From assembly GCA_964410585.1 (NCBI GenBank), contig CAYPFW010000001.1, positions 68,781 to 132,780 on the forward strand: a DNA stretch of 64,000 nt. Direction: 5' to 3'. The translations under genes and the position numbers were made by a program. Positions 12,753-52,458 of this stretch are shown here, piece after piece (within the stretch, counting starts at the first letter, position 1; each line of letters starts with the position of its first letter). This DNA is from an uncultured archaeon. Lineage in GTDB: Archaea > Aenigmatarchaeota > Aenigmatarchaeia > QMZP01 > JACQNV01. The notes under the pieces are model-generated. The model searched no databases and was not told the origin of the DNA. It saw nothing but the letters and a program-made list of their open reading frames with translations.

Positions 12753-12810
12753 CGATTGCCGTATATTCTGAGAATATGCTTTTAAAACCGTCAGATCTAA
12801 TTAGTGTGAT

Positions 12811-13557: not shown

Positions 13558-13580
13558 GCGGTTTTGGATACGGTAGCCTT

Positions 13581-22792: not shown

Positions 22793-22881
22793 ATTACAAC
22801 TATAGTTCTTTTGGGTACTGTAGACTTTTCTCAGATTTCGGCCTTATAACATAAGGTCCTTTCATTTTAAGAAAAGGCTAG

Positions 22882-37234: not shown

Positions 37235-37244
37235 GGTTAATCGT

Positions 37245-37509: not shown

Positions 37510-37510
37510 G

Positions 37511-37550
37511 CCCCTTTTCTTAGAAAGAAAAGGCCCTCGGGTTCAAAAGA
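37511..37550 (+). terminator. conserved 3' hairpin element, copy 1 (after spt4)
   Basis: CCTTTTCTT-aga-AAGAAAAGG stem then CCCTCGGGTTCAAAAGAAC. Confidence 0.4.
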
Positions 37551-37591
37551 ACTACTTTACAAACATATAAACTATCAAAACATGATATTGT

Positions 37592-37673
37592 GGAAGGCGT
37601 TTAAAATTTTTTCGAACAGCAGTGAGAAAAAATTTAGCCTCCTGTTTTGGTTAAGCTTTTAGGATAAAAGGTT
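37592..37673 (+). promoter_or_regulatory. conserved leader element, copy B (upstream of rps24e)
   Basis: GGAAGGCGTTTAAAATTTTTTCGAAC...AGAAAAAATTTAGCCTCCTGTTTTGGTTAAGCTTTTAGGATAAAAGGTT then ATG. Confidence 0.6.
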
Positions 37674-37994
37674 ATGAATATAGAAATTGTACACACAAAG
37701 GAAAACCCTTTGCTAGAAAGGCAGGAAGTTGAAGTTTTAGTTAAACATGACTCTGCTTCTACTCCTAAGAGAGCAGATCTTCTAGTCGAATTAGCAAGCA
37801 AACTAAAAACAGAACAAGAACTTCTGATTTTGGAAACAATAAAAACCAACAAAGGTCAGGCTCAAACAATAGGCAGAGTTTTGGTATACCAGAAAAAAGA
37901 ATCTGTTCCAAAAGACAAGCTCGAAAAAATGCAAAACAGGATTTCTGGCAAAAAGAAAGAAGCAGCTGCACCTGCACCAAAGAAAAAAGAATAA
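37674..37994 (+). CDS. rps24e: ribosomal protein S24e
   Basis: MNIEIVHTKENPLLERQEVEVLVKH... S24e N-terminus. Confidence 0.8.
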   Translation: MNIEIVHTKENPLLERQEVEVLVKHDSASTPKRADLLVELASKLKTEQELLILETIKTNKGQAQTIGRVLVYQKKESVPKDKLEKMQNRISGKKKEAAAPAPKKKE

Positions 37995-37995
37995 A

Positions 37996-38124
37996 ATGAC
38001 TAATTCTATAGAATGTATCCAATGCGGAAAGAAAATGATTCACTACCAATGCAAAGATGTCTGCCCATATTGTGGAGCAAAACTAGATTGTTCTGATTTT
38101 GATCAGCCAGGACAAACTAAATAG
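37996..38124 (+). CDS. small zinc-ribbon protein, possibly ribosomal protein S27ae
   Basis: Unlisted 42-aa ORF MTNSIECIQCGKKMIHYQCKDVCPYCGAKLDCSDFDQPGQTK directly after rps24e (conserved archaeal synteny). Confidence 0.45.
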   Translation: MTNSIECIQCGKKMIHYQCKDVCPYCGAKLDCSDFDQPGQTK

Positions 38125-38301
38125 ATTTTCCTAAACAATTAGAGCAAACTTTCCCAGAAAAATGTTTCTGACAAACTAAAGACCCACAGAGAGAGCAGGA
38201 TAAATTTGCCCTCTTTCCACAGACCGAACACAGTCCTGATATCATACATTATTTTTTGTTCTTTTTCTTCCTATATCTTTTGATGTTTCTGTCGCTTGTT
38301 C

Positions 38302-38496
38302 TCATAAAACAGTTCCACCTCTCTTATCGTATTGTTTACCTAAACAGTTTTTGCAAAGTCTCAATGTATGGTGAAAGCAGCTCACGCAAACATTTGCATC
38401 GCACACATTGCACGAATTAAACTTCTCAGTTACCCTATTGCAAGCTGCGCAAAGTTTTGCTTTTTGTGAGCCAAATAACTCTTTGCCTTGGGCCAT
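38302..38496 (-). CDS. small Cys-rich zinc-finger-like protein
   Basis: 64 aa with 8 Cys in C-x2-C spacing. Confidence 0.4.
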   Translation of the reverse strand: MAQGKELFGSQKAKLCAACNRVTEKFNSCNVCDANVCVSCFHHTLRLCKNCLGKQYDKRGGTVL

Positions 38497-38600
38497 ATTA
38501 TTATTAATGTTTTGATATTAATAACTTAGATAAGCTGAGATGGCGGAGTACTTAATTGAGTTTCAGTTTTGTACGTATTGGTAACGCGCACGCCTGGAAA

Positions 38601-38650
38601 GCTAGCCTTTTCTTTTCAAAAAGAAAGGTCTACCGTATCCAAAAGAAAAC
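38601..38650 (+). terminator. conserved 3' hairpin element, copy 2 (inside tRNA locus)
   Basis: GCTAGCC-TTTTCTTTTC-AAAAAGAAAGG-TCTACCGTATCCAAAAGAAAAC. Confidence 0.4.
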
Positions 38651-38663
38651 GATTTACAAACAT

Positions 38664-38745
38664 GGAAGGCGTAAAAATTTTCGAGTTGAGACGAAGAAAA
38701 TTTTAGCCTCCTTTTTGGATTAACCCTTTTCTCAAAAAGGGTTAT
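38664..38745 (+). promoter_or_regulatory. conserved leader element, copy C (upstream of the tRNA 3' segment)
   Basis: GGAAGGCGTAAAAATTTTCGAG...GAAGAAAATTTTAGCCTCCTTTTTGGATTAACCCTTTTCTCAAAAAGGGTTAT. Confidence 0.55.
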
Positions 38746-38800
38746 AGAAAGCGTGTGCCCTTGTGGCTCCAGAGTTCGAATCTCTGTCTCAGCGTGCTAC

Positions 38801-38840
38801 TCTTTCTTTAGAAAAGAAAGAGCACCGTCCAGAAAGAAAC
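38801..38840 (+). terminator. conserved 3' hairpin element, copy 3 (after tRNA 3' end)
   Basis: CTCTTTCTTT-aga-AAAGAAAGAG then CACCGTCCAGAAAGAAAC. Confidence 0.4.
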
Positions 38841-38949
38841 TACAATACAAACACACATCAAACAAAATTGTAATATACCAAAGAGAAACAATATACAATA
38901 AACCAAAGAAGGCTAGAGTACCCAAAAAACTAATTTACAAAAACAATCT

Positions 38950-41010
38950 CTATGATTTTCTGCCTTCCCTTTCCTGCTTTTTTATTGACTCTCCGATCCT
39001 CTTTCTATCTCCTTCATATCCAAGATTTCTTAAAGATGAATGCAAGCCCAAGTCGTAAAGAATTCTAGCTATCTGATATCCTGTTAATCTGTCTTCTGGC
39101 ATCCTAGACAAAACATATTTGCTATCCCCATTGACTAATCTTAGTTTGCTAATCTGGTCCCTTGTGTAAGTATCAGATGCAGAAAATGGAACATATCCAT
39201 TTGTGCTTGGTCTTGTTGCCAGATATCTTCCCAATTCTATTTTTGCTTTCTCAGGATCTGTTGGCAGACCAAGTCCAGATAAAATAGCATCCCTGATTTT
39301 GGGGTTTTGACTTCCAAGCGCAAACTGTGCAAGATCTGTTTTTCTAGCTCTGCCATTATTGATAAGAGGTTTTATTCCGGCCATAGCAGGCAGTGACCTG
39401 TAAAGCCTGTTCATACCATTATGATCTAAGGTTCCACCCAAATCAACAATCTTCGGTTCTGCCGCTTGTTTTACAGCTTCTTCGTGTGCATAGTGAAGTC
39501 CTAAAACATAATCTGAATCATATCCAAAATGGCCCAAAACTTTCTCAGCTCTGTTTAAGTCCATCTTTTCAATAACTCTTTGTTCAAGTAGATCCTTTGG
39601 TACACCGTTTTCGCCTAATGTAATGCCAATTGCAGCTAATTCTTTTCTAAGTGCTCCATCATCTTCCACACCAAAAGCTTGTCTGAGTCTGTCATTTCCA
39701 TATCTGCTTGAATCAACTACTTGAGCCTGCGGAACAGCAACTTTGACAGCCGGAGGAGCAGGCGTTTGTACTACAGGTTTTCCGTCCTTGACTTCTGCTG
39801 GTTTTTGTTCTACAGCCAAAACTTTTGGATCAACTCCTTTTTTCCTAGCAAATTCAATTAGCCATGTATCTGCTTTATCTTGAATATACAACCCTCTGCC
39901 AGTTCTAGGTGTTTTAGAGCCCCTAAATATGGAGTATGCATCATGATATGATAAGTCTGGATCAATTCTTTTCATTCCTTCGTATATATCTGAGAACCTT
40001 ACTGTCTTAGAATCTGAGTCAGAAACCGATTTTGCCGGAGTCTTTGGTTTTGCATATTTATCAATCTCTGCTAAAAATTTCCTTCTCTTTGCATCTGATA
40101 TACCTCTCATTGATGTAACATAATTTTTTGCATGTTCTACAGTCAGATTGCCTGCTTTTACTCCTCTTTTACTTAGAACTTGATATATGCATCCATATTC
40201 TCTTCCTGTTATTTCAGACAAAGCTGTAATTGTTATTCTTTGTGGTTCAATTTTTGGTTCTTCCACTATGGCGCTAGCTACAGCGCTTTTTGGTGATCTA
40301 GGTGTGTATTGATTAAGTCTACCCAATATAGCCTCTCTTTGAGTGGGAGAAACTCTCCTCATGTCATTTAAAACATAATCTCTTGCATCACCTACTGTTA
40401 TTTCCGACGACTCTATTCCTTTGTTTTCAAAAACACCTAAAATCGTATTAATGTTCCTTCCTGTAATTTCAGCTAAATCTCTTGCAGTTATTCTCTGTTT
40501 AGGATCAGTTTTAGGATGCTCTTTTGTTGCCACATGTGCTGTGTCTGCTGGTTTTCTTGGTTCTACAGCTCCAACACTTTCTTCATACAAAAAGTCAACC
40601 AATCCTTCAGAAGAAGAGATTCCTCTGACTCTTTCTGGAGACAAACTAAAAACAACTCTCAAATCTTTTCCCTTAATGACTTTTTCTATTTCCTTCTGTC
40701 CAGAAAAACTTGCAGGCTCATCTGAATATCTTCCATCAACAACTTTGGCTAACAGTGGTTTTTTCGAGTTGAAATCCAAAATCAGATGAGTTGGTCTGTA
40801 TTCAATTCCAACAACTTCACCTTTTTCATTTCCAAATCTCACAGGATATTCAGATACAGAAATTCTAAGAGGTTCTCCACCAACAACAGATGCCCCACTT
40901 GAAAAATTATTTCCAACAGGTTCTCCTGTAATTATGCTATTGCTCAAGCTATCCATGAATGTCGGCGGTGTGCCTTCGGGCTTCGCTTTTACTTCTACTT
41001 TTAGTACCAT
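38950..41010 (-). CDS. hypothetical 686-aa protein with internal ~65-aa repeats
   Basis: Paired segments QRITARDLAEITGRNINTILGVFENKG... and QRITITALSEITGREYGCIYQVLSKRG...; Ala/Arg/Gly-richer than neighbours. Confidence 0.6.
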   Translation of the reverse strand: MVLKVEVKAKPEGTPPTFMDSLSNSIITGEPVGNNFSSGASVVGGEPLRISVSEYPVRFGNEKGEVVGIEYRPTHLILDFNSKKPLLAKVVDGRYSDEPASFSGQKEIEKVIKGKDLRVVFSLSPERVRGISSSEGLVDFLYEESVGAVEPRKPADTAHVATKEHPKTDPKQRITARDLAEITGRNINTILGVFENKGIESSEITVGDARDYVLNDMRRVSPTQREAILGRLNQYTPRSPKSAVASAIVEEPKIEPQRITITALSEITGREYGCIYQVLSKRGVKAGNLTVEHAKNYVTSMRGISDAKRRKFLAEIDKYAKPKTPAKSVSDSDSKTVRFSDIYEGMKRIDPDLSYHDAYSIFRGSKTPRTGRGLYIQDKADTWLIEFARKKGVDPKVLAVEQKPAEVKDGKPVVQTPAPPAVKVAVPQAQVVDSSRYGNDRLRQAFGVEDDGALRKELAAIGITLGENGVPKDLLEQRVIEKMDLNRAEKVLGHFGYDSDYVLGLHYAHEEAVKQAAEPKIVDLGGTLDHNGMNRLYRSLPAMAGIKPLINNGRARKTDLAQFALGSQNPKIRDAILSGLGLPTDPEKAKIELGRYLATRPSTNGYVPFSASDTYTRDQISKLRLVNGDSKYVLSRMPEDRLTGYQIARILYDLGLHSSLRNLGYEGDRKRIGESIKKQEREGRKS

Positions 41011-41041
41011 ACAATAGGAAATCTATACAAATAGTACAGCC

Positions 41042-41725
41042 ATGGTTTATAAATCTTTCTCCTCCCACTATTGTATGGAAATTAGGATAAAATCCTGCAA
41101 ACCAGAAGAAGCAGAAGGTTTGACAGTCCTTATAGATGTGATACATTCCAGTTCAACAATTGTCCAATTGCTTGATTCGGGGATAGAAAAGCTTATACCC
41201 CTCGCAGAAAACCAAGATATACAACCCTTCAAAGAACAAGGCTACTTGGTTTTTGGTGAAAGGTTTTCCACAGCTTTCAAAAAATCAGAATACCTAAACT
41301 CGCCTCTTGTCGCAGAAACTTTGGATTTGAAAGGCAAAAAAGCTGTGATAAAAACAGATAATGGGACAAAAGCAGTTTTGGCAGCAAAGAATGCGTCTGA
41401 AATTTTGATAGGTTGTTTTCTAAATGCAAGAGCGCTTTTGGAATATGTAAAATCCAAAAATCCAAAATCAGTTGACCTGATTCCAGTTGGCAGACACAGA
41501 AAACAGGCAATAGAGGACGAGCTTTTTGCAGAATATTTCAAAAACTTTTTGGAAGGAAAAGAAATGGATTTCGATGGTTGCAAAAATAAAATATTCAAAA
41601 ATTGGAGAAACATAATTCGACTAATTTTCTTAGGGCAACACACAAATTCTTGTTTCAAGCTAAACACATGCACCACGGTTCCTTTGTTCAAAGGTGGCGA
41701 ATTGGTTCCAATAAAAACAAGATGA
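41042..41725 (+). CDS. 2-phosphosulfolactate phosphatase (ComB)-family-like protein
   Basis: LTVLIDVIHSSSTIV resembles the ComB VIDVLRATTT motif. Confidence 0.45.
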   Translation: MVYKSFSSHYCMEIRIKSCKPEEAEGLTVLIDVIHSSSTIVQLLDSGIEKLIPLAENQDIQPFKEQGYLVFGERFSTAFKKSEYLNSPLVAETLDLKGKKAVIKTDNGTKAVLAAKNASEILIGCFLNARALLEYVKSKNPKSVDLIPVGRHRKQAIEDELFAEYFKNFLEGKEMDFDGCKNKIFKNWRNIIRLIFLGQHTNSCFKLNTCTTVPLFKGGELVPIKTR

Positions 41726-41834
41726 GCCGGCTCAAAAGGTTTATATACTCTAATGCACACTTATTTAGATAATTATGGTTACCCAACCGAGAACTGGGAT
41801 TAGTTTTTATTCTAGTTCTCTGTTGTTTATCTTT

Positions 41835-42623
41835 ATGTCAAAGGCTCAAGTTTTAGATCTTAGCGGAAAGCCAAAGGGAGAAACAAACCTAGGCACAGCT
41901 TTCAAAACCGCTGTAAGGAAAGACATAATTCAAAGAGTTTTTGTTTCTGAGCAAGCTGCCAAAAGACAACCATATGGCACAGATCCGCTTGCTGGAGATC
42001 GTTCATCTGCACACTACCATGGAAGCAGACATGTCAAATGGACAATGATGAACAGGGAAATGGCAAGGATGAAAAGAATCCACAACCAAGGTTATTTGAA
42101 TTATACAGCAAGGGTTGTCCCTTATGCAGCAAAAGGAAGGACAGCTCATCCACCAAAAATCGAGAGAGTTTGGACGCAAAAGGTGAATAAGAAAGAAAGA
42201 GTTTTGGCTTTGAAATCAGCGCTTTCAGCTTCTGTTTTGAAAGATTTGGTACTTCTTAGAGGACACAAAGTTGAAAACATCCATGTACCTTTGATTCTTG
42301 AAAATAAATTTGAGGAATTAAAATCAACAAAAACAGTTGTTGAGGCTTTGATTGCTATTGGTTTAGGACACGAGCTTGACAGAACATCTGAAGTTAAAAT
42401 AAGGGCAGGGAGAGGAAAAATGAGAGGAAGGAGATACAAAGTAAAAAAAGGCCCGCTTTTAGTTGTCACAAAGCCTGCCTTGAAACAAGCTGCAAAAAAC
42501 ATTTTAGGCGTTGATGTTGCAACAACAAAAGAACTCACAATGACTTTGCTTGCTCCAGGTGGACAAGCTGGAAGATTAACAATATTTTCAGAAGCTGCGA
42601 TAGAAGAGTTGAACAAGTTGTGA
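41835..42623 (+). CDS. rpl4: ribosomal protein L4 (uL4)
   Basis: Start set to MSKAQVLDLSGK (ORF-track frame +60); archaeal L4 length; followed by L23-L2. Confidence 0.85.
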   Translation: MSKAQVLDLSGKPKGETNLGTAFKTAVRKDIIQRVFVSEQAAKRQPYGTDPLAGDRSSAHYHGSRHVKWTMMNREMARMKRIHNQGYLNYTARVVPYAAKGRTAHPPKIERVWTQKVNKKERVLALKSALSASVLKDLVLLRGHKVENIHVPLILENKFEELKSTKTVVEALIAIGLGHELDRTSEVKIRAGRGKMRGRRYKVKKGPLLVVTKPALKQAAKNILGVDVATTKELTMTLLAPGGQAGRLTIFSEAAIEELNKL

Positions 42624-42636
42624 TTGGAGGATAAAT

Positions 42637-43008
42637 ATGGTTGAAAAAAAACCTAAAAAAGAAACAAAAAAACCAAAGGCTGAAAAACCAGCAAAAAAAG
42701 AAAAGCCTAAATTAGAAAAGAAAACCAATAAACAGAAGGCCCAGAATTTTGATCCTTTCAAAGTTTTATTGTATCCTCATCTTGCAGAAAAATCAGCAGC
42801 TCTTGTTGACACACAAAACAAAATTGTGTTTGTCGTAAATCCAAATTCAACAAAAGAAGATGTCAAGAAAGCAGTTGAATCAGCATTCGGCGTAAAAGTC
42901 GTCGATGTAAACATAGAAAACACAACATACGGCGAGAAAAAAGCATACATCAGACTTCATTCATCAACACCAGCAACAGAAGTTGCAACAAAATTAGGTA
43001 CATTGTAG
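42637..43008 (+). CDS. rpl23: ribosomal protein L23 (uL23)
   Basis: Lys-rich N-terminus then conserved L23 core; synteny. Confidence 0.85.
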   Translation: MVEKKPKKETKKPKAEKPAKKEKPKLEKKTNKQKAQNFDPFKVLLYPHLAEKSAALVDTQNKIVFVVNPNSTKEDVKKAVESAFGVKVVDVNIENTTYGEKKAYIRLHSSTPATEVATKLGTL

Positions 43009-43026
43009 AAACCATGAGTTTAGGTT

Positions 43027-43695
43027 ATGGGTAAGAATTTGATCCAACAAAGAAGGGGAAGAGGTTCATTCACATACTTAGTCCCAAGAAGCGGGAAAAG
43101 ATACAACCCTCTATATAGCGGTAAGAAAGGAGTTGTTAAAGATATTTTACATGATAGAGGAAGAGATGCTCCAATAATTGAAATCCAAAACGAGGATGGA
43201 ACTGTAAATTATATGATAGCTCCAAAGGGAATAAAAGTAGGCGATATTGCTGAAAATTTAGGCGTTCCGCTTTCATCTGTCCAAGAAGGATCACAGATTT
43301 TCGGTTTGGAAACCTATCCAAATTCAGGCCCAAAGCTTTGCATGTCTCCAGGATCATTTGCAACAGTTGTCTCAAAAACAGCAAACGCATGTTTAGTGAA
43401 AATGCCTTCAAGAAAAGAAAAAACATTTAGTTTATCTTGTAGGGCTAGTTTAGGTGTCCCTGCAGGCGATGGTAGAAAAGACCAGCCATTTACAAAAGCA
43501 GGTGTCAAACATTATTTCATGAGAGCAAGAGGAAAACTATATCCTCGTACATCTCCAGTGAAGATGAATGCTATAGACCATCCTTTTGGTGGTGCAACAT
43601 CTGTTGGTACACCAATGACAATCAGCAGGCATGCTCCTCCTGGTGCAAAAGTTGGATCTGTTGCAGCTAGAAGGACGGGTAGGAAGAATAAGTAA
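43027..43695 (+). CDS. rpl2: ribosomal protein L2 (uL2)
   Basis: LIQQRRGRGS N-terminus and HPFGGATSVGTPMT C-terminal motif. Confidence 0.9.
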   Translation: MGKNLIQQRRGRGSFTYLVPRSGKRYNPLYSGKKGVVKDILHDRGRDAPIIEIQNEDGTVNYMIAPKGIKVGDIAENLGVPLSSVQEGSQIFGLETYPNSGPKLCMSPGSFATVVSKTANACLVKMPSRKEKTFSLSCRASLGVPAGDGRKDQPFTKAGVKHYFMRARGKLYPRTSPVKMNAIDHPFGGATSVGTPMTISRHAPPGAKVGSVAARRTGRKNK

Positions 43696-43721
43696 ATAAA
43701 GGAGAAAGTTAAGATATCGCT

Positions 43722-44102
43722 ATGAATGAAATAAAATTTCGTGGACTGGAATTTGAGCAAGTAAAAAAGCTTTCATTAGAAGAATTTAGCAACCTTCTTC
43801 CATCAAGGGACAGAAGAGCTCTTAGAAGAGGTTTCACAGACGCTGAGAAAAAACTTCTAAAAAGCGTCAGAAAAAACCCTAAAAAATTCCACAAAACACA
43901 AGCAAGGGAAATGATAATCATACCAGAATTTGTAGGACAAAGAATAGGAATCCACAACGGCAAAGAATTTGTTGCTGTGGATATAAGACCAGAAATGATT
44001 GGACACAGGCTCGGCGAGTTTGCCCTAACAAGAAAATCAGTCAAGCACTCAGCTCCTGGTTTCGGTGCTACAAAATCATCAAAGTTCGTGCCATTGAAAT
44101 AG
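43722..44102 (+). CDS. rps19: ribosomal protein S19 (uS19)
   Basis: MIGHRLGEFALTRK motif; synteny. Confidence 0.85.
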   Translation: MNEIKFRGLEFEQVKKLSLEEFSNLLPSRDRRALRRGFTDAEKKLLKSVRKNPKKFHKTQAREMIIIPEFVGQRIGIHNGKEFVAVDIRPEMIGHRLGEFALTRKSVKHSAPGFGATKSSKFVPLK

Positions 44103-44149
44103 CTAGCCTTTCTTTTCAGAAAAGAAAGTCTACCGTACCCAAAGAAAAC
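44101..44149 (+). terminator. conserved 3' hairpin element, copy 4 (after rps19)
   Basis: AGCTAGCC-TTTCTTTT-caga-AAAGAAAG-TCTACCGTACCCAAAGAAAAC; overlaps the rps19 stop codon. Confidence 0.45.
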
Positions 44150-44168
44150 GGTATACAGGTTGATAAAT

Positions 44169-44552
44169 ATGTTAAAGTATTCCTTGAATCTAAAGCCAGA
44201 GAAGTCGGCAAAAGTTTACGGTTCAGGCTTGAGAATCTCAACAAAAAATTCAGCAATTGTTTGCAGATCAATAAACGGCATGCAACTTCAAAAAGCAAAA
44301 AAATTTTTGTTGAGAGTTTTGGAAGAAAAAAGTGAAATAAACGGCCGATACTACACAAAAACAACATCAACTGTCCTGGATATGATCTTGTCAGCAGAAA
44401 AAAACGCAGAATTCAAGGGTTTGGACACAGACAGACTTTTTGTCCACGCAGCTGCACAAGCAGGTTACAGGTTTTACAGACCTAGGAGAATGAAAATGCG
44501 AGGACAGCAAAGAAAGGTCTCAAATTTACAAATAGTATTGGAGCAGAGGTAA
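44169..44552 (+). CDS. rpl22: ribosomal protein L22 (uL22)
   Basis: Start set to the ATG 9 nt into the ORF-track frame; synteny between S19 and S3. Confidence 0.8.
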   Translation: MLKYSLNLKPEKSAKVYGSGLRISTKNSAIVCRSINGMQLQKAKKFLLRVLEEKSEINGRYYTKTTSTVLDMILSAEKNAEFKGLDTDRLFVHAAAQAGYRFYRPRRMKMRGQQRKVSNLQIVLEQR

Positions 44553-44553
44553 A

Positions 44554-45363: not shown

Positions 45364-45365
45364 AT

Positions 45366-45623
45366 ATGGCAATTTTAAGATTGGATGAAATGAGAAAAAT
45401 GGAAGAAAAAGACCTAAATTCAAAAATAACAGAGTTGAGAATTGAGCTTGCTAAGGAAAAAGCCAATATAAGAATAGGCGCTTCTGTGTCTTCTCCTGGA
45501 AGACTAAAACAGATAAAGAAGACAATAGCAAGAGTTGAGACACTCAAAAAGGAAAAGCTATTAAAGGCTAAGAATCAAGAAATAAGTAAGTCAGCTCCAA
45601 AGGCTGATAAAGAGGGGAAATAA
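45366..45623 (+). CDS. rpl29: ribosomal protein L29 (uL29)
   Basis: MAILRLDEMRKMEEKDLNSKITELRIELAKEKA helical L29 pattern; synteny. Confidence 0.75.
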   Translation: MAILRLDEMRKMEEKDLNSKITELRIELAKEKANIRIGASVSSPGRLKQIKKTIARVETLKKEKLLKAKNQEISKSAPKADKEGK

Positions 45624-45627
45624 GTAA

Positions 45628-45930
45628 ATGGCAGTTTGTCCTAATTGTGGCTTACCAAAAGAAATTTGTGCATGTGAAAGCATAGCACGCGAAGAGGAAA
45701 AGATAAAAGTTTTTTCTGAAAAAAGAAGATACTCACGTCCTATCACAATAATCCATGGTTTGAGCAAGAGTGCTGATAGCAAAGGTATTTTGAAAGAGTT
45801 AAAAACCCGCTTGGCTTGTGGTGGAACAATAAAAAACAATGAAATCGAGCTGCAAGGCGAGCATGTTGAAAAAGTCAAACAACTTTTGCTCAAACTCGGT
45901 TTCCAAAAGGAACAGATAGAAGACTTTTAG
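45628..45930 (+). CDS. sui1: translation initiation factor aSUI1 (eIF1 homologue)
   Basis: N-terminal CPNCG...CAC zinc ribbon and SUI1 core RPITIIHGL ... LACGGTIKNNEIELQG. Confidence 0.8.
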   Translation: MAVCPNCGLPKEICACESIAREEEKIKVFSEKRRYSRPITIIHGLSKSADSKGILKELKTRLACGGTIKNNEIELQGEHVEKVKQLLLKLGFQKEQIEDF

Positions 45931-45966
45931 CACTTTTCTTTTTCTGCTCAGTTTTGAAAAAAGAAA

Positions 45967-46088
45967 TCGTGTCTCTTTGGTTATATTGTGACACGAGATT
46001 GAGTGAGCTTGTCTCACTCAAGATGTGCTCACTGCTCATGTGCTGTTGCACATGACATCTCAGCATCTATTTCACAGTGAGATGCTGA
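45967..46088. other. cluster of four consecutive stem-loops between convergent sui1 and the ArsR-like gene
   Basis: TCGTGTC/GACACGA; TTGAGTGAG/CTCACTCAA; CATGTGC/GCACATG; TCAGCATCT/AGATGCTGA, GC-richer than surroundings. Confidence 0.5.
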
Positions 46089-46145
46089 CCTGCACTAAAG
46101 AAAACAAGCGATTGACTTCAAAAAAATATACAACTAGATACTCTA

Positions 46146-46757
46146 TTAATTTATTTCCATCCTATACTTCTTCGGCAAACCAAATGACGCCACCATCATG
46201 ACTGCACCGATCACAAGAAAAACTATTGTATACAAGCTGAATTCAGGTTCTTGTTCAGTTTCAACTGTTTGTATAATAGAAGTATCTTCTCTTTCTTTAT
46301 TTTCAGTCTCATTAAAGGAACTAGCTGCTTTGAGAGCTCCTGTGACTTTTTCTTGACTGATAACTGAAGGACTTGTTAAAGCAGCATCTGCCAAACTATT
46401 TATTTCATATTGACTAGAAAACTGAGATGAATAAGGCTGAAAAAATGTTGCAAAGGCTCCCAAAAATATCAATCCACCTAAAACCAAAATAACAACAAAT
46501 TGCGGTGTGTATTGCGGTTTCACTAAAGTATTTCCTTTTTCAGTTAGTTCATAGTAAATCCATTTATGTCCAGTTTCCTTTCTTTGAATTAGTCTAGAGT
46601 CTTCTAAATTTTTCAAGTGTTCAGAAATTGTGGAGGCTGCCATTCCAAATTCTTTGGCTAACTCAGTCGGCATTTTCCTTCTCCTGGCTAAACTTTTCAG
46701 TATATCTATTCTTGTCTCTGATGAGAGCGATTTTATCGTAGTCCTATCAAGCTCCAT
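46146..46757 (-). CDS. ArsR-family winged-helix regulator fused to transmembrane segments
   Basis: HTH region MPTELAKEFGMAASTISEHLKNLEDSRLIQRK followed by two predicted TM helices. Confidence 0.65.
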   Translation of the reverse strand: MELDRTTIKSLSSETRIDILKSLARRRKMPTELAKEFGMAASTISEHLKNLEDSRLIQRKETGHKWIYYELTEKGNTLVKPQYTPQFVVILVLGGLIFLGAFATFFQPYSSQFSSQYEINSLADAALTSPSVISQEKVTGALKAASSFNETENKEREDTSIIQTVETEQEPEFSLYTIVFLVIGAVMMVASFGLPKKYRMEIN

Positions 46758-46798
46758 ATTTAGTGTTTATTTTGTCTTGTTTAAATATGACCTGATAT

Positions 46799-46818
46799 TA
46801 TTCGGTTTCTGCCGAATA
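46799..46818. promoter_or_regulatory. perfect palindrome upstream of the ArsR-like gene (candidate operator)
   Basis: TATTCGG-tttctg-CCGAATA about 40-60 nt upstream of the start codon at 46757. Confidence 0.4.
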
Positions 46819-46929
46819 GTTTGCATAGTCATTTGTTCTTACAAAAAAAGATAAAATATGAATAGATATGTGATAATAATTTCGTTTCTAACAGGTTTTT
46901 CGATAGTGGTTTCTACAATTTTTTTATAG

Positions 46930-47250
46930 TTAAGGGAAAATAATGTGTCTTGATTTGTCAACCCTTGTCCAATCACCCTCACTTGTTTCATATGCCACTA
47001 ATCTTCTATTGAAAAAAGTTAGCTTTTTCGGATCGTGTTCTAATGGAATAGGTCCACCATACTCTATCCTATGTGGACCAAACTTTTCCTCAACCCAAGC
47101 ACCTATGCCGTTTATTGTAAATCTCCATAGGGTGTATTCATAATTTCCAAAAAATCTTCTACACCTTTTTTGTTCAGTTGGTTCTCTGATATGAAAACCA
47201 AGTGCTCTCATCTGCTGTACGAATCCGGGTATCATATATAGGTCTGTCAT
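46930..47250 (-). CDS. hypothetical protein (106 aa)
   Basis: ORF track only. Confidence 0.4.
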   Translation of the reverse strand: MTDLYMIPGFVQQMRALGFHIREPTEQKRCRRFFGNYEYTLWRFTINGIGAWVEEKFGPHRIEYGGPIPLEHDPKKLTFFNRRLVAYETSEGDWTRVDKSRHIIFP

Positions 47251-47279
47251 TCAAAAAGTATATAAGATAGTTTTAAATT

Positions 47280-47558
47280 ATGATCACTCCTGAAAATTTA
47301 GTCAGACACGAACTAATAGGCCTGAAAGTCCTAGTTGAAAAATCAACAAACAAGTTGCAGCAAGGCCTGTCTGGAACAATAGTTGACGAAACAAGGCAAA
47401 CGCTTACCCTCAGAGATTCTGCCGGAGAAAAACAGGTTTTGAAGGATCAGTGTGTTTTTGTTTTTTCTCTTCCTTCTGAAAAAAAAGTCCGGGTTGATGG
47501 AAAAGTACTTGTTTCTAGACCAGAAGATAGGATAAAGAAAAAACTGAGAGTGTGGTAG
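47280..47558 (+). CDS. rnp1: RNase P protein component 1 (Rpp29/Pop4 family)
   Basis: LIGLKVLVEKSTNKLQQGLSGTIVDETRQTLTL matches the p29 barrel motif. Confidence 0.7.
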   Translation: MITPENLVRHELIGLKVLVEKSTNKLQQGLSGTIVDETRQTLTLRDSAGEKQVLKDQCVFVFSLPSEKKVRVDGKVLVSRPEDRIKKKLRVW

Positions 47559-47559
47559 T

Positions 47560-47784
47560 ATGGAAGTGAAAAAGGGAAAATACTTGCATTACAAGGGAAA
47601 AGAATACAAAGTCCTTGGAGTAGCAAAACACAGCGAGACAATGGAAGATCTAGTTGTCTATCAAGCGCTTTATGATTCAAAAGAGTTTGGCAAAAATGCG
47701 CTTTGGGTAAGGCCAAAGAAAATGTTTCTGGAAAATGTTGTTGTGGATGGAAAAGAAGTGCCTAGGTTCAAGATGATCACGTGA
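47560..47784 (+). CDS. DUF1653-like small protein
   Basis: GKYLHYKGKEYKVLGVAKHSETMEDLVVYQALY pattern. Confidence 0.5.
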   Translation: MEVKKGKYLHYKGKEYKVLGVAKHSETMEDLVVYQALYDSKEFGKNALWVRPKKMFLENVVVDGKEVPRFKMIT

Positions 47785-48104
47785 AGAGATTTAAATCTAA
47801 TCATGCTATTCTGCTTATGGGTTACATAGATCAAATTTTTAGACGTCCAGAGGACGATGTATTTGTCGTAGCAGAACCAAGACATGGAATAGCTGGTCTA
47901 CAATATATTGGATCAGTGCCCTATAGACTCGATTTCCCGAATAGAGCTGTAGATAGTGCTCACTATGTTTCTAGAGCTGAATTAAGAAGAGCTCTTGCAG
48001 ATAAACAAATAGAGCTTGAAAGAAGTTTAGCTATAACAGGTGATATACTTGAAAGCCTTGATCCGAGGAAGATGAAAAAGCAAACTGATAGAGCAGAATC
48101 CTAA
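47781..48104 (+). CDS. hypothetical protein (107 aa)
   Basis: ORF track; start overlaps upstream stop. Confidence 0.4.
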   Translation: MKRFKSNHAILLMGYIDQIFRRPEDDVFVVAEPRHGIAGLQYIGSVPYRLDFPNRAVDSAHYVSRAELRRALADKQIELERSLAITGDILESLDPRKMKKQTDRAES

Positions 48105-48150
48105 TTATATTTGAATTATTTATATACTCGGGAGTACCAATTTAGGTATT

Positions 48151-48363
48151 ATGGCAGAACATTCAAAAGGTTGTAGGGCTGCTTTGGCTGTATTTGGCCT
48201 GCTATTTTTGTTAGTGGGTTTGTATGCAGTCATGGGTGACCTTGGATCAGCAACAAAAATGGTTGACAAATGGTCTTTGGTCATCGTCCTTGGAGGCTTA
48301 ATGCTTCTCCTTAAAGGAGCATTTGGCGGAAAATGTGCAGCATGTGGTGGTCAATCAAAATAA
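48151..48363 (+). CDS. small membrane protein (70 aa)
   Basis: Two hydrophobic helices; C-terminal CAACGG. Confidence 0.4.
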   Translation: MAEHSKGCRAALAVFGLLFLLVGLYAVMGDLGSATKMVDKWSLVIVLGGLMLLLKGAFGGKCAACGGQSK

Positions 48364-48391
48364 TTTTGGGCCACTTAATTTTTTCTATTTC

Positions 48392-48844
48392 TTATTTTTC
48401 TTTGTTTAGAATATTCAGAAGATCGACTAAATATCTTATTGTGTATGTTGGTTCCTCCTCCTTTGTTTGAGGAAGAATTTTAGAGTATTTCCCAAATTTG
48501 AACCAAACAGTTTTCATGCCAGCCTTATTTCCAGCTTTTATTTCAGCCTGAATTTTGTCACCAACAACCAACACCTCTTCTGGTTTCAATCCCATTTCAG
48601 CTGCACATTCCAAAAAATGTTTTTTATCCTTGTGCTCGCCTTCAACAACGATTATTTTTGTGAATTTTTTATCCAACCCCTTTTCTTCCAAACTTTCCAA
48701 TCTATGCCCCTCGCCTGTTGTGATTAGGCAAAGTTTGTATTTCTTAGAAAGTTCCTCTAAAAGTCCTGGAACTTCGTCTATTAAGTCCCATTTTTCTGGG
48801 TCAAACAGAGTCCTATTATAATCAAAAATTATTCCTTTAATCAT
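48392..48844 (-). CDS. HAD-superfamily hydrolase
   Basis: N-terminal IIFDYNRTL (DxD-type motif I) and downstream HAD motifs. Confidence 0.7.
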   Translation of the reverse strand: MIKGIIFDYNRTLFDPEKWDLIDEVPGLLEELSKKYKLCLITTGEGHRLESLEEKGLDKKFTKIIVVEGEHKDKKHFLECAAEMGLKPEEVLVVGDKIQAEIKAGNKAGMKTVWFKFGKYSKILPQTKEEEPTYTIRYLVDLLNILNKEK

Positions 48845-48892
48845 GTTCTATGATTGAAACTGCACATTTAAAAACAAAATCCAATTAGAACC

Positions 48893-49183
48893 ATGCCAAC
48901 AAAAGAAGAAGTGATAGAGGTCCTGAAGAAAATAGAAGATCCTGAAATTCATATTGATATCTGGACACTGGAATTGGTGAGGGATATTGTAATTGAAAAT
49001 GAAAGGGTAAAAATTAAAATGACCCTGACAACACCTGCTTGTCCATATGGGCCTGCTTTAATACAAGAAGTTGAAAGCACACTCAAAACCCTTCCAGGTA
49101 TAAATTCAGTTGAAATAGAACTTGTTTTCTCTCCCCCTTGGCAGCCTTCAGATGAAGTAAAGGAAATGTTGGGGCTCACTTAA
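48893..49183 (+). CDS. DUF59/MIP18-family Fe-S cluster assembly protein
   Basis: EEVIEVLKKIEDPEIHIDIWTLELV and TTPACPYG motifs. Confidence 0.65.
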   Translation: MPTKEEVIEVLKKIEDPEIHIDIWTLELVRDIVIENERVKIKMTLTTPACPYGPALIQEVESTLKTLPGINSVEIELVFSPPWQPSDEVKEMLGLT

Positions 49184-49196
49184 GCCTTTATAAACA

Positions 49197-49244
49197 CCAG
49201 CTAGCCTTCTTTTAGAAAAAGAAGGCTACCGTACCCAAGAAAAC
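49197..49244 (+). terminator. conserved 3' hairpin element, copy 5 (after DUF59 gene)
   Basis: AGCTAGCCTTCTTTT-aga-AAAAGAAGGCTA-CCGTACCCAAGAAAAC; followed by TTTATAAATA TATA-like box before rps17. Confidence 0.45.
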
Positions 49245-49290
49245 TATAATTCACATTTATAAATACCTCATTTCTATATACTAAGATAAT

Positions 49291-49611
49291 ATGAAAACAA
49301 ACATAGGCGTTGAAGCCAACCCACCAAAAGAAAAGTGCGAAGATAAGAAATGCCCATGGCATGGCCAGCTTTCTGTTAGAGGCAGGGTCTTCGATGTAGT
49401 GATAAAAAGCACAAAACCAAACAAAACAGCAATTGTCGGCTGGGATTACAATCTATATTTGCAAAAATACGAAAGGTTTGAAAGAAGAAAAAGCAGGTTA
49501 TCTGCATACAATCCTTCTTGTTTGAGGGCAAAGGAAGGCGACAAAGTAAGGATAGCAGAGTGCAAGCCTCTTTCAAAAACAAAAAGCTTCGTAGTTGTTG
49601 GAAAGCTTTGA
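49291..49611 (+). CDS. rps17: ribosomal protein S17 (uS17), archaeal type
   Basis: CEDKKCPWHGQLSVRGRVF N-terminal extension and ECKPLSKTKSFVV core. Confidence 0.85.
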   Translation: MKTNIGVEANPPKEKCEDKKCPWHGQLSVRGRVFDVVIKSTKPNKTAIVGWDYNLYLQKYERFERRKSRLSAYNPSCLRAKEGDKVRIAECKPLSKTKSFVVVGKL

Positions 49612-49716
49612 TAGGAAACTTTTTGCCTTCCTATCAACAAGTTCGTCTGATGTGGAGATGACGAACATTTATAAGATCGGTGATCAATATACCTATTCAA
49701 AAGGTTTAAGCGTCGC

Positions 49717-49798
49717 GGAAGGCGTAAAATTTTTCCGAGCAACAGCGAAGAAAAATTTAGCCTCCTGTTTTGCTTAAGCTTTTGGGACAAAAGCTTAT
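49717..49798 (+). promoter_or_regulatory. conserved leader element, copy D (upstream of rpl14)
   Basis: GGAAGGCGTAAAATTTTTCCGAGC...GCGAAGAAAAATTTAGCCTCCTGTTTTGCTTAAGCTTTTGGGACAAAAGCTTAT then ATG. Confidence 0.6.
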
Positions 49799-50197
49799 AT
49801 GAAGGGACTTTCAGCTAACATCACAAAAGGACTTGGAACAAAATCCATACTCACATGTATAGACAATACAGGTGCAAAAGAATTGGAAATAATATCTGTC
49901 CGAGGATTCAAGGGTAAAAGAAGGACAAAACCAAGAGCAGGCGTCGGTGACCAAGTCACATGCAGAGTGAAAAGGGGAGTTGAAAAAGTCAGGCACGAAA
50001 TGTTCAAAGTTGTGATTGTTAGGCAAACAAAAGAATACAGAAGGTTTGATGGAACAAGAATAAGCTTTGAAGACAATGCAGGTGTAATAATCAATGAAAT
50101 GGGTGAGCCAACAGGAACCCTTTTGAAAGGCCCAATTGCAAAAGAAGCTGTGGAAAGATTCCCAACAGTTGGAAAGTTGGCATCAATAATAATTTGA
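49799..50197 (+). CDS. rpl14: ribosomal protein L14 (uL14)
   Basis: CIDNTGAKELEIISV ... AGVGDQVTCRVK ... GPIAKE motifs. Confidence 0.9.
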   Translation: MKGLSANITKGLGTKSILTCIDNTGAKELEIISVRGFKGKRRTKPRAGVGDQVTCRVKRGVEKVRHEMFKVVIVRQTKEYRRFDGTRISFEDNAGVIINEMGEPTGTLLKGPIAKEAVERFPTVGKLASIII

Positions 50198-50198
50198 T

Positions 50199-50411
50199 AT
50201 GGTCAACGTAACAAGAATAGGTGGATACACAGTAAGAGAAGATAGTGAAGAGATTCATGTTGTGATGCCTTCGGGAAGAGTTGCAGAGATTGATGGTGAT
50301 GATTATCACGCTTTCCGTAACCAAGTATATGCGGCCATGCGATCAGGTGCAACTGTTGCAGTTGATGTGCTTAGTAATTTTTTGAAGGATAGAGGAATTA
50401 GAAATTTATGA
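50199..50411 (+). CDS. small hypothetical protein inserted between rpl14 and rpl24
   Basis: 70-aa ORF, compositionally unlike flanking ribosomal proteins. Confidence 0.4.
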   Translation: MVNVTRIGGYTVREDSEEIHVVMPSGRVAEIDGDDYHAFRNQVYAAMRSGATVAVDVLSNFLKDRGIRNL

Positions 50412-50809
50412 AAACACAGTGGTCAACAAGCTGGATAAGCAGCAAGCAGCCAAGGAAGCAAAGAAAATATAGATACAATGCTCCTCTTCATGTCAGAAGA
50501 AAATTTGTTTCAGCACACTTATCAAAAGTTCTTAGAAAAAGATTCAACAGAAGGGCAGTCCCTTTGAGAAAAGGTGATGAAGTCGAGGTCATGAGAGGAA
50601 ATTTCAGTGGCCAAAAAGGCAAGGTTGAAAGAGTAGATCTTAAACACTCCAAAGTTTATGTTGAAAACATAAAAGTAAAAAAAGTCAACGGCACAGAAGT
50701 TTTAAAACCTTTAGAGCCTTCAAATCTCCTAATAACAAACCTGGTCCTCGAAGACAAAATGAGGAAAAAAGTCTTGGAAAAGAAAATGATCAAAGAGGAG
50801 GCTAAATAA
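50408..50809 (+). CDS. rpl24: ribosomal protein L24 (uL24)
   Basis: KOW motif LRKGDEVEVMRGNFSGQKGKV. Confidence 0.8.
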   Translation: MKTQWSTSWISSKQPRKQRKYRYNAPLHVRRKFVSAHLSKVLRKRFNRRAVPLRKGDEVEVMRGNFSGQKGKVERVDLKHSKVYVENIKVKKVNGTEVLKPLEPSNLLITNLVLEDKMRKKVLEKKMIKEEAK

Positions 50810-51525
50810 TGTACCTAAAAAGATATTCAGCTCCAGAGCAATGGAAGATTGGAAAAAAAGCATACACATGGGTAGTTAAACCATCTCCTGGACCTCATCC
50901 GCTGAAAAAATCTATTCCCCTTCAAATTCTTGTTAGGGACGTTTTCAAATTCGCAGACACGGCAGCAGAAGCAAAAAAAATAATCCATTCTGGAAAAATT
51001 TTAGTTGACAAAAAAGAAAGGAAAGATCCAAAATATCCTGTCGGTTTAATGGATTTGATAGATATACCATCTATCCAAAAATCATATAGAGTTTTCCCAT
51101 CCAAAAAAGGACTTGAGGTTCTCGAAGCTAGCCAAAGTGAAAACGCAAAACTTTGCAGAATAAACGACAAAAGAACATTGAAGAAAAATGTTTTCCAATT
51201 AAATCTTCATGACGGAAGAAATCTTATCACAAGTGAAAACACATACAAGCCAGGCGATTCTATTCTGATTAGTTTACCAGGACAGGAAATTGTAAAACAT
51301 TATTCACTAAAACAGGGCGAACATGCTTATGTTATTTCAGGAAAAAATATTGGATTCAAAGGCTCAATAAAAGAAATAAAACAAAGAAAGTATATGAGAG
51401 AAAGTAGTAAAGTTGTTTTGGAAAAAGACAAAGACAGGATAGAAACTCTGAAAGATTACATTTTGGTTGGTGAGTTAACAGGCGAACAAAAAGTTGAAAA
51501 GAAAAAGAAAAAAGAAAGTGAATAG
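50809..51525 (+). CDS. rps4e: ribosomal protein S4e
   Basis: MYLKRYSAPEQWKIGKKAYTWVVKPSPGPH N-terminus. Confidence 0.85.
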   Translation: MYLKRYSAPEQWKIGKKAYTWVVKPSPGPHPLKKSIPLQILVRDVFKFADTAAEAKKIIHSGKILVDKKERKDPKYPVGLMDLIDIPSIQKSYRVFPSKKGLEVLEASQSENAKLCRINDKRTLKKNVFQLNLHDGRNLITSENTYKPGDSILISLPGQEIVKHYSLKQGEHAYVISGKNIGFKGSIKEIKQRKYMRESSKVVLEKDKDRIETLKDYILVGELTGEQKVEKKKKKESE

Positions 51526-51527
51526 AT

Positions 51528-52043
51528 ATGTTGAGCATGCGAGATGTTAAATTGGAAAAGGTTACGATTAATGTAGGCACAGGAGAACCTGGACCTAAAT
51601 TAGAAAAAGCAAGAAAAATAGTTGAAAAAATAAGTCAAAGAAAGGCAGTTATTACAAAGGCTAAAAAGAGAACAACTTTCGGAACAGTCAAAGGAAAGCA
51701 AATAGGTGTTAAAGTCACATTGAGAGGAAAGCCTGCAGCAGAATTTTTAAAAAGTGCTTTCAAGTCTGTTGGAAACAAGCTAAAGGCTTCACAGTTTGAT
51801 GCTTCAGGAAACTTTTCATTTGGAATAGAGGAATACATAAACATCCCCGGTATAAAATATGATCCGGAAGTTGGTATGATGGGAATGGATGTATGTGTTA
51901 CACTCCAAAGACCTGGATATAGGGTTAAGAAAAGGATGATAAGGCCGGCAAAAATAGGTAAAAATCATTTGCTAAAAAAAGAAGATTCAATTGAATTTGT
52001 AAAAAAACAATTTGGAATACAAATATCTGAGGATCAAAAATAA
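51528..52043 (+). CDS. rpl5: ribosomal protein L5 (uL5)
   Basis: LEKVTINVGTGEPG and conserved L5 core; synteny. Confidence 0.85.
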   Translation: MLSMRDVKLEKVTINVGTGEPGPKLEKARKIVEKISQRKAVITKAKKRTTFGTVKGKQIGVKVTLRGKPAAEFLKSAFKSVGNKLKASQFDASGNFSFGIEEYINIPGIKYDPEVGMMGMDVCVTLQRPGYRVKKRMIRPAKIGKNHLLKKEDSIEFVKKQFGIQISEDQK

Positions 52044-52083
52044 AATCATGGAGGGTCTAGAAATATAAAAAAAGTTTAAGCGT

Positions 52084-52161
52084 GGAAGGCGTAATTTTTT
52101 GCAAGCAACAGCGAAGCAAAAAATAGCCTCCGTTTTTGCTTAAGCTTTTGACTAAAAGCTT
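52084..52161 (+). promoter_or_regulatory. conserved leader element, copy E (upstream of rps14)
   Basis: GGAAGGCGTAATTTTTTGCAAGC...GCGAAGCAAAAAATAGCCTCCGTTTTTGCTTAAGCTTTTGACTAAAAGCTT then ATG. Confidence 0.6.
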
Positions 52162-52383
52162 ATGAGCTTTGAAAATTCATTGAAACAGGTGAAGAATAAA
52201 CCAGAAAAAATGAAAAGGGTACTTAAATTTAGTTCACCCAAAAAAAGAAAATTTGGAAAAAATTCTCATCCCTGCAGAAGATGTGGTAGGACAAGGGGAG
52301 TAATAATGAAGTATGGCTTGCAATATTGCAGGCAATGTTTCAGAGAGCAAGCACAGAGGCTTGGTTTCAACAAATTTTCCTGA
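52162..52383 (+). CDS. rps14: ribosomal protein S14 (uS14, zinc-binding type)
   Basis: CRRCGRTRGVIMKYGLQYCRQCFRE zinc motif. Confidence 0.8.
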   Translation: MSFENSLKQVKNKPEKMKRVLKFSSPKKRKFGKNSHPCRRCGRTRGVIMKYGLQYCRQCFREQAQRLGFNKFS

Positions 52384-52387
52384 TCCT

Positions 52388-52458
52388 AACCTTTTAGGAA
52401 AAGGTTAAGGTTCACCCAAAGAAACTACAGCTGAGTTCAACAAAGCTACCGTACCCAA
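52388..52458 (+). terminator. conserved 3' hairpin element, copy 6 (after rps14), bipartite
   Basis: AACCTTTT-agg-AAAAGGTT then AAGGTTCACCCAAAGAAAC ... AGCTACCGTACCCAAAAATC. Confidence 0.4.

Follow-up and report, generated by a model that had tools for sequence, protein, structure and literature searches.

Near-identical introns bounded by bulge-helix-bulge motifs are found in different tRNA genes of the Thermoproteales, at positions 37/38 and in the T-loop (Fujishima et al. 2010, as summarized in PMC4090602), and the same summary gives the mechanism and the mobile intermediate of this intron 'transposition' as unknown, presuming that it operates at the DNA level. In Caldiarchaeum subterraneum, a tRNA gene is disrupted by an integrating mobile element of 1.8 kb, which encodes a recombinase (PMC3293823). 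A precedent for small insertions within genes is offered by the Rickettsia palindromic elements (RPEs), which are intragenic palindromic transposable elements of the miniature inverted-repeat kind (MITEs; PMC10969869). We found, in a 64-kb stretch of contig CAYPFW010000001.1 from an uncultured archaeon of the Aenigmatarchaeota (hereafter the window, i.e., the whole stretch analysed), a family of 56-58-nt units made up of a hairpin and an A/C-rich flank, which combines features of the Thermoproteales introns, the RPE-type MITEs and the Caldiarchaeum mobile-element model. We posit, with a probability of about 0.68, that this is a lineage-specific, non-autonomous mobile hairpin element of Aenigmatarchaeota that doubles as a tRNA-intron module.

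Like the Thermoproteales introns as they appear in that summary, the unit is shared between tRNA genes at positions 37/38 and in the T-loop, together with bulge-helix-bulge motifs; unlike them, it also occurs in operon spacers, at gene ends and within an open reading frame (ORF), some of its copies have target duplications, and its lineage is DPANN/Aenigmatarchaeota rather than the TACK group. As in the Caldiarchaeum case, a putative insertion of mobile DNA is linked to gain of a tRNA intron and fragmentation of tRNA genes (PMC3293823), but the unit is non-coding and 56 nt long, unlike the 1.8-kb recombinase-coding element. The RPEs are bacterial, about 100-150 bp long and unrelated in sequence, whereas the present unit is archaeal, 56-58 nt long and also a candidate tRNA-intron module. 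The literature yielded no archaeal counterpart for Rickettsia-type in-frame palindromic insertions and, to our knowledge, none has been described; RPEs also occur in RNA genes. Like classical MITEs and Correia-type elements, the unit is small, non-coding, multicopy, dispersed and insertion-polymorphic, with promoter-, hairpin- and terminator-like parts and, in some cases, direct repeats. Unlike those of classical MITEs, its palindrome is internal and its duplications range from 0 to 27 nt rather than being fixed, and no parent insertion sequence was found in the window; because it has no terminal inverted repeats and, as it seems, no fixed duplication length, it is not a classical MITE. A hairpin core without terminal inverted repeats is also typical of REP/BIME elements and of the palindromic elements linked to IS200/IS605, which resemble the unit in this respect. 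REP/BIME-type elements insert without target duplication beside a fixed short target, unlike the present unit, which has no conserved upstream tetranucleotide and some long duplications. Neither a Y1 transposase nor TnpB was seen in the window.

The repeat family and its copies

The preliminary description of this DNA had placed copies of a hairpin with an invariant flank after spt4, in and after the tRNA locus, and after rps19, the DUF59 gene and rps14. All six sites are present as placed and belong to a real family, but the invariance was overstated: the 17-mer CCGTACCCAAAGAAAAC is found exactly only once in the window (44133) and tolerance of up to three mismatches adds one site, the flanks have diverged in the spt4 copy and in the copy after the tRNA gene, and 45 nt separate the hairpin from the CTACCGTACCC box in the rps14 copy. 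As searches with the exact or near-exact box yielded a single exact copy, a degenerate core and profile hidden Markov models (HMMs) were used instead. The 13-nt core CTACCGTAYCCAA with at most one mismatch matches six times, against 0.01 expected from shuffles, and a repeat search of the window groups the sites into two families, D3 and D5. A profile HMM built from five copies recovers those five at E = 1e-10 to 1e-15 (nhmmer), and the E-values for the family reach 1e-16. In total, the profile search gives about 11 copies or fragments per 64 kb, three of which (56869-56925 on the + strand, 22799-22881 and 13557-13614 on the - strand) lie beyond the range first reported. The count of about 11 refers to the window, and L-numbers label the contigs or genomes of relatives used for comparison. 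The unit is also present in more than 10 related contigs; a pattern scan of metagenomes, in which about 90% of the listed matches were due to chance and were removed by HMM, gave at least about a dozen genuine relatives carrying it among the matches listed. Rfam covariance models gave no match in the window at the gathering score or at E<=1, and two scans of IMG/VR for a viral or plasmid origin returned chance matches only, the element being absent there. The copies in the window are as follows:

13557..13614, - strand: two-hairpin variant of 58 nt, antisense to the flanking + strand genes, which encode citryl-CoA lyase and a small ORF
22799..22881, - strand: unit enlarged internally by about 30 nt, immediately 3' of the metallophosphoesterase TAG and upstream of gatC
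37510..37564, + strand: diverged unit with the flank CCCTCGGGTTCAAAAGAAC, directly 3' of the spt4 TGA (37507-37509)
38600..38660, + strand: unit forming the 5' end of the intron (38600-38749, 150 nt) in the anticodon loop of tRNA-Ser(GGA)
38797..38851, + strand: diverged unit (GCTACTC... GAGCACCGTCCAGAAAGAAAC), beginning 1-2 nt past the tRNA-Ser discriminator base (38794)
38900..38940, + strand: half copy with 3' arm and flank only (AAGAAGGCTAGAGTACCCAAAAAAC)
44103..44158, + strand: unit of 56 nt directly 3' of the rps19 TAG (44100-44102), with the rpl22 start codon at 44169
49199..49255, + strand: unit of 57 nt between the DUF59/FeS-assembly gene and rps17, starting 15 nt past the DUF59 stop codon
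52384..52476, + strand: composite of a variant hairpin and a separate box, after the rps14 stop codon
56869..56925, + strand: in-frame unit of 57 nt within an RsuA-type pseudouridine synthase gene (56620-57423), encoding LPLSLEKKGVRYPKETNIE

From 5' to 3', the unit consists of (A)GCTAGCC, a T-rich arm, a loop of 3-4 nt, an A-rich arm, GGCTA, CCGTAYCCAAAGAAAC and a TATA-like tail of about 10 nt ending in ATACA. Its boundaries are set by the copies that can be delimited, at 56 nt (rps19), 57 nt (DUF59 and pseudouridine synthase) and 58 nt (the 13.6-kb copy and L181), and its inverted repeat is the internal hairpin. All 17 distinct copies collected fold as hairpins with a stem of 10-14 bp, in which positions 3, 4, 5, 8, 9 and 10 switch between T-A and C-G on both arms together; the outer stem varies between TAGCC/GGCTA, TATCC/GGATA and TACCCC/GGTGTA. 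Because these compensatory changes involve both arms, the hairpin is selected as a structure. The spt4 copy reads GGGTTCAAAAG, which is suggestive, though only suggestive, of a derivation of the flank from a tRNA T-arm. The composite after rps14 comprises a variant hairpin (CCTAACCTTTT/AAAAGGTTAAGG) with the flank TTCACCCAAAGAAAC, followed by a hairpin-less box, AGCTACCGTACCCAAAAATC, and then TATACAAA. The copy at 38797-38851 is similar to a T-loop-intron copy of L089, and the two-hairpin subfamily of the 13557-13614 copy is also found in L067.

No stop codon interrupts the pseudouridine synthase copy, and the 19 residues that it encodes are missing from 11 of the 11 aligned Aenigmatarchaeota homologs; the 57 nt by which the gene exceeds these homologs coincide exactly with the HMM match. 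Compared with the solved RsuA structures, the residues belong to an inserted segment, and in an AlphaFold2 model with a mean predicted local distance difference test (pLDDT) score of 84.9, the insert (residues 86-104) is the sole stretch below 50, which points to a surface loop.

Insertion differences between relatives

In about 40 Aenigmatarchaeota, the S19-to-L22, S17-to-L14 and S14-to-S8 spacers are about 5-14 nt long, as against 66, 187 and 141 nt in the window. In L188, the S3 protein of which is 87% identical, the S19-L22 spacer has 35 nt and no hairpin, and a copy (flank AGCTACCGTACCCAAAGAAAACGGTATACAG, 30/31 identical to the window rps19 copy) is instead carried between L22 and S3, where the window has a spacer of 1 nt. 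In L181-L184, with a 90% identical citryl-CoA lyase, a copy lies after codon 6 of the lyase gene, and the ribosome-binding site and gene start are present twice around it, as a direct repeat of 27 nt (24/27 identical). In L181, the ATP-grasp subunit has its C-terminus replaced by a second copy, and both L181 sites are empty in the window. The antisense copy of the window is enclosed by a perfect 14-nt direct repeat at 13543-13556 and 13615-13628 (GGGAAGAAGTTGTA on the + strand). This repeat is a duplication of the lyase gene's native end, GGGAAGAAGTTGTAA, which L186 shows; when the 13557-13614 element and one of the repeats are taken out, a TAATG stop/start overlap is regained. An imperfect 12-nt direct repeat (one mismatch) surrounds the DUF59 copy, with TTTATAAACACC at 49187-49198 and TTTATAAATACC at 49256-49267, and the L065 copy is flanked by a 15-nt repeat, ATGGAA[A/G]TTGATAAA (one mismatch), the downstream member of which is the start of an ArsR-like gene.

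Mobility of the unit is supported because the junctions that have copies differ between relatives whose proteins are 87-90% identical and because the orthologous junctions in about 40 relatives are short and empty. We infer that the copies arose by transposition rather than by repeated recombination, and the family is a dispersed repeat specific to a subclade of Aenigmatarchaeota (DPANN archaea). Four copies have direct repeats, and the target duplications measure 0, 12, 14, 15 and 27 nt; this variable length argues against a fixed-stagger DDE transposase and suggests insertion by a nick/flap-repair or target-primed process. Casposase integration produces 14-15 bp duplications, and a casposase-like event was raised by the 14-nt repeat; we rejected it as a firm claim in view of duplications of 0-27 nt and the lack of terminal inverted repeats. 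We propose that new copies would arise as DNA insertions, both in gene junctions that were tight in the ancestor and in the first or last codons of genes, and would also enter sites after tRNA genes, tRNA genes themselves and, in one case, a protein surface loop, in frame and apparently translated. Of the interpretations offered in the preliminary description, the small mobile palindromic element has gained support, and the framing as a 3'-end element has not, as it is at odds with the in-frame copy in an ORF, the antisense intergenic copy, the tRNA introns and the copies at gene 5' ends seen in relatives; the positional bias to gene ends on which that framing depended holds only in part.

The unit and a second repeat family in tRNA genes

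ARAGORN and Rfam (the latter also at E<=1) detected no tRNA in the window. Once a D-loop insert and the 38600-38749 intron are removed in silico, ARAGORN calls a tRNA-Ser(GGA), the intron of which is composed of the hairpin-plus-flank unit and a unit of a second repeat family, D1:

38534..38794, + strand: gene for tRNA-Ser(GGA), in which about 27 nt are inserted in the D-loop and an intron of 150 nt lies at 37/38
38663..38745, + strand: D1 copy, the 3' part of the tRNA-Ser intron
37243-37326, 37590-37676, 49715-49798 and 52082-52164, + strand: other D1 copies in the window
L005 2147-2219, L011 16618-16700 and L066 959-1039 (antisense): D1 copies in relatives

The 38600-38660 copy has a T variant of the flank that matches the GGA anticodon. 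In the predicted fold, the flank UCCA pairs with U33-G34-G35-A36 of the anticodon loop beside the hairpin, and this UGGA/UCCA pairing would be the central helix of the 5' half of a bulge-helix-bulge; in the window tRNA-Ser only that half (UGGA/UCCA helix, bulge and hairpin) is seen. The unit occurs inside at least four tRNA genes, at intron positions 37/38 and in the T-loop, and its start is predicted to be the exact 5' splice junction. In several metagenome relatives, it starts right after the tRNA T-loop (...GGTTCAAAT/GCTAGCC and ...GGTTCGATT/GCTAC), and the 3' strand of the T-stem and the acceptor strand come 30-45 nt past the flank; removal of the intron in silico leads ARAGORN to call a tRNA-Leu(TAA) in L065 and a tRNA in L089. 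Defining the bulge-helix-bulge strictly, as two 3-nt bulges with a 4-bp helix between them at the exon-intron borders, we found canonical motifs in the T-loop introns of L089 (CAGG/TTCG/ATT/GCT ... AGC/CGAG/ATT/CCTG) and L066. Folding of the T-loop introns predicts a three-way junction closed by GCU/AGC, with the flank paired to a downstream complement; their 3' splice partner lies outside the unit. The same scan of the non-tRNA copies found no such motif at eight of them and a single AT-rich match at spt4 that is probably spurious; because they have no convincing bulge-helix-bulge, the non-tRNA copies are not classed as introns, and removal restores a cloverleaf, as it does for bulge-helix-bulge introns, with the tRNA copies only.

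In tRNA genes, the unit would thus form the 5' module of an intron, its initial GCU and hairpin giving the inner helix beside the 5' splice bulge. Because it supplies this module and the helices of the intron, the splicing endonuclease would excise the unit together with the tRNA intron, and the introns that contain it are likely spliced. The non-tRNA copies, having no bulge-helix-bulge, probably remain in the transcript as passengers. The failure to detect the tRNA-Ser(GGA) gene suggests that tRNA genes of this lineage are systematically missed by standard tools. Several introns are carried by tRNA genes of L005, L066 and L160, which were parsed in part. On the minus strand of L089 (440-1000), four hairpin-plus-flank units in 360 nt alternate with a complete tRNA and with small tRNA-like segments, one of which is a degenerate 3' fragment of tRNA-Ser that ends in ..CCTCAGCG; this region could be a multi-intron or split tRNA array, or could consist of pseudo-fragments. 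The cluster of elements around the window tRNA gene is adjoined by a 686-residue ORF with no Pfam match (38950-41010, - strand).

D1 is about 85 nt long and comprises GGAAGSCG, a hairpin, AGSCUCC, UUUUG and a hairpin, TTAAGCTTTT..AAAAGCTTA; compensatory changes are found at 9 of its 27 predicted pairs, and it has no Rfam match. The window copies run up to the start codons of spt4, rps24e, rpl14 and rps14 and, for the one in the intron, to the 3' exon of the tRNA-Ser; in L005, D1 precedes rpl2, and in L066, L045 and L051 it is found antisense in tRNA D-loop introns. GC-richer relatives have the last hairpin of D1 only, beside TATA promoters. D1 is probably another mobile or intron-associated module, and might possibly act as a 5'-leader. 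The enlarged rps17-to-rpl14 spacer of the window has a good TATA box (CATTTATAAG) upstream of D1 and, at 49612-49714, two more hairpins, GATAGGAA..TTCCTATC and GTTCGTCTGATGTGGAGATGACGAAC, the latter with CTGA and GATGA boxes resembling a K-turn or C/D motif.

Rival readings, genomic setting and a possible role in intron gain

Several observations weigh against a mobile element. The target duplications are inconsistent, with none at two cleanly bounded copies, those of rps19 and the pseudouridine synthase gene, and the unit has no terminal inverted repeats, its 5' (A)GCTAGCC not being complementary to its 3' ..AAAC-NN-ATACA(G). Comparison with Pfam of the approximately 64 ORFs of the window, several of which have no match, gave no transposase, integrase or reverse transcriptase, and no autonomous partner element was identified within the window. 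The flank is more conserved between contigs than are the neighboring proteins (47 nt of the 49199-49255 copy are 100% identical to the L066 and L089 copies, i.e., in three different contexts), which could reflect functional constraint rather than recent spread. The orientation in the window is about 10:1 in favor of the sense strand, which is not obviously expected of selfish DNA. Sense-strand bias and flank conservation together leave room for a function, and three functional readings deserve consideration.

The unit might be a gene-boundary cassette, with the T-rich-arm hairpin ending the upstream transcript and the flank and TATA-like tail (CCCAAAGAAAC-TA-ATATACAA) serving as a promoter with a transcription factor B recognition element (BRE) and TATA box that restarts transcription, so that the ribosomal-protein operon would be split into separately expressed units; we consider this unlikely. 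Most sense copies indeed begin 0-15 nt past a stop codon or tRNA 3' end, the sense bias would fit, and rps8 is preceded, at -29..-22, by hairpin-less flank-like units (CCAAAGAGAAACAGTATACAA), as is a gene of L089 at much the same distance. This is within the spacing of genuine promoters in the window, where TATA boxes lie about 24-33 nt before the start codon and, because of that spacing, most mRNAs are probably leaderless. However, the TATA-like part of the unit is merely 8-11 nt from the start codon at the rps19-rpl22 and gatC copies, the spacing is also unfit at the pseudouridine synthase and tRNA-intron copies, and we do not favor a promoter reading of the BRE/TATA-like flank, given such inconsistent distances to start codons. 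As to termination, the hairpin is not followed by a T-run, a scan for bacterial-type terminators did not flag the sense-strand hairpins, and an intrinsic terminator (G+C-rich hairpin with U-tract) was rejected given the A/C-rich flank. Moreover, one copy is antisense, the copies in the ORF and in at least four tRNA genes need read-through for the gene to function, and positions differ between relatives with 87-90% identical proteins. As the flank does resemble the BRE/TATA region of this organism, incidental promoter activity is possible, and the hairpin with its BRE/TATA-like tail may incidentally influence termination or initiation.

An RNA processing signal, cut by the tRNA splicing endonuclease or another RNase, with the units acting as mRNA 'introns' or cistron separators, seems to us a distinctly poor prospect. 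It would draw on the exact coincidence of the unit start with the 5' splice junction of tRNA introns, on the restoration of the ancestral protein length if the 57 nt were removed from the pseudouridine synthase mRNA, and on the description of DPANN endonucleases with relaxed specificity (PMC5829648). Against it, the strict bulge-helix-bulge is confined to the tRNA T-loop introns, the 3' splice partner of which is outside the unit, and the pseudouridine synthase copy, in frame, stop-free and modelled as a loop, is as expected if it is translated; the mRNA-intron version was rejected on the outcome of the strict scan at the non-tRNA copies, which apart from the likely spurious spt4 match was negative. 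It is highly improbable that the unit is the binding site of a regulatory protein, such as a ribosomal protein or a transcription factor coordinating translation-related genes: the concentration of copies in the ribosomal-protein/transcription gene cluster and the strong sequence conservation of the flank would agree with it, but copies also lie beside citrate-lyase, gatC, arsR-like and pseudouridine synthase genes and in tRNA introns, their positions are not conserved among relatives, and the flank shows no palindromic operator-like symmetry by eye. Taken with the insertion differences, these points argue against a dedicated terminator, processing site or operator, and we retain the non-autonomous mobile hairpin element as the preferred reading.

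The source organism, a member of the Aenigmatarchaeota (DPANN), shares only about 61-67% identity in ribosomal protein S3 with its best-matching species representatives; identical contigs are present in four Logan assemblies. The genes at 36-54 kb are ordered rpoE'-spt4-rps24e, a 42-amino acid zinc-ribbon ORF, the tRNA gene and rpl4-rpl23-rpl2-rps19-rpl22-rps3-rpl29-sui1, and, past an intervening stretch, rps17-rpl14, an unassigned 70-amino acid ORF, rpl24-rps4e-rpl5-rps14 and, to judge from its start, rps8. Directly after this archaeal ribosomal-protein cluster, an 835-residue ORF (53665-56172, + strand) combines bacterial sigma-70 regions 2, 3 and 4 (Pfam E = 6e-18, 9e-11 and 7e-10) with a long repetitive C-terminal part; a sigma-70 homolog is unexpected in an archaeon. 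At 9310-13557, the window encodes ATP-citrate-lyase-like proteins (ATP-grasp/citrate-binding and CoA-ligase subunits and citryl-CoA lyase) in a DPANN genome, with thioredoxin and DsbD-like genes between them. Other inserts are found in the ribosomal-protein clusters of relatives. Two other Aenigmatarchaeota (L005 3307-3368 and L011 9029-9117) have a different structured insert, GGRAGGGCTGGGAAC..hairpin..AGGTTTCC, at the S19-L22 junction, and in L011 the last part of the S19 gene is duplicated over 12 nt (CCACTGAAATAG) on its flanks; L009 (11759-12401) has a repeat containing GCTTACCAGAGTGCAAGGTTAAGGTGA in two adjacent ribosomal-protein spacers; and L007, L028, L030 and L039 have a small ORF of 260-385 nt between rps19 and rpl22. 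A hairpin of the same type (GCCTTTCTTTAGAAAAGAAAGC) is found in L028 (13529-13655) within a C-terminal extension of S17, translated as ..SLSLEKK.., and may be a second case of a hairpin recruited into coding sequence.

We further entertain, tentatively and at less than even odds, the view that the hairpin units are the actual vehicles of tRNA intron gain, in that the unit inserts anywhere, at times with target duplications of 12-27 nt, and, upon landing in a tRNA loop, is rescued as a spliceable intron. The inner helix of the bulge-helix-bulge would then come from its GCU and hairpin, and the central helix from its flank or from a partner segment; in proteins and operons the unit would persist only where it is harmless. 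If true, this would provide sequence-level evidence on how archaeal tRNA introns 'transpose'. One small family occurring in two forms, as canonical bulge-helix-bulge tRNA introns and as ordinary insertions in protein genes and operon junctions, would tie intron gain to a DNA-level mobile element in a manner testable in a defined lineage. Insertion of the element explains why standard tools found no tRNA in the 64-kb window, and elements of this sort could lead to tRNA genes being overlooked in DPANN genomes generally. Where spacers are enlarged in the archaeal ribosomal-protein operon, which is tight elsewhere, the added DNA can be a passenger and need not be regulatory.

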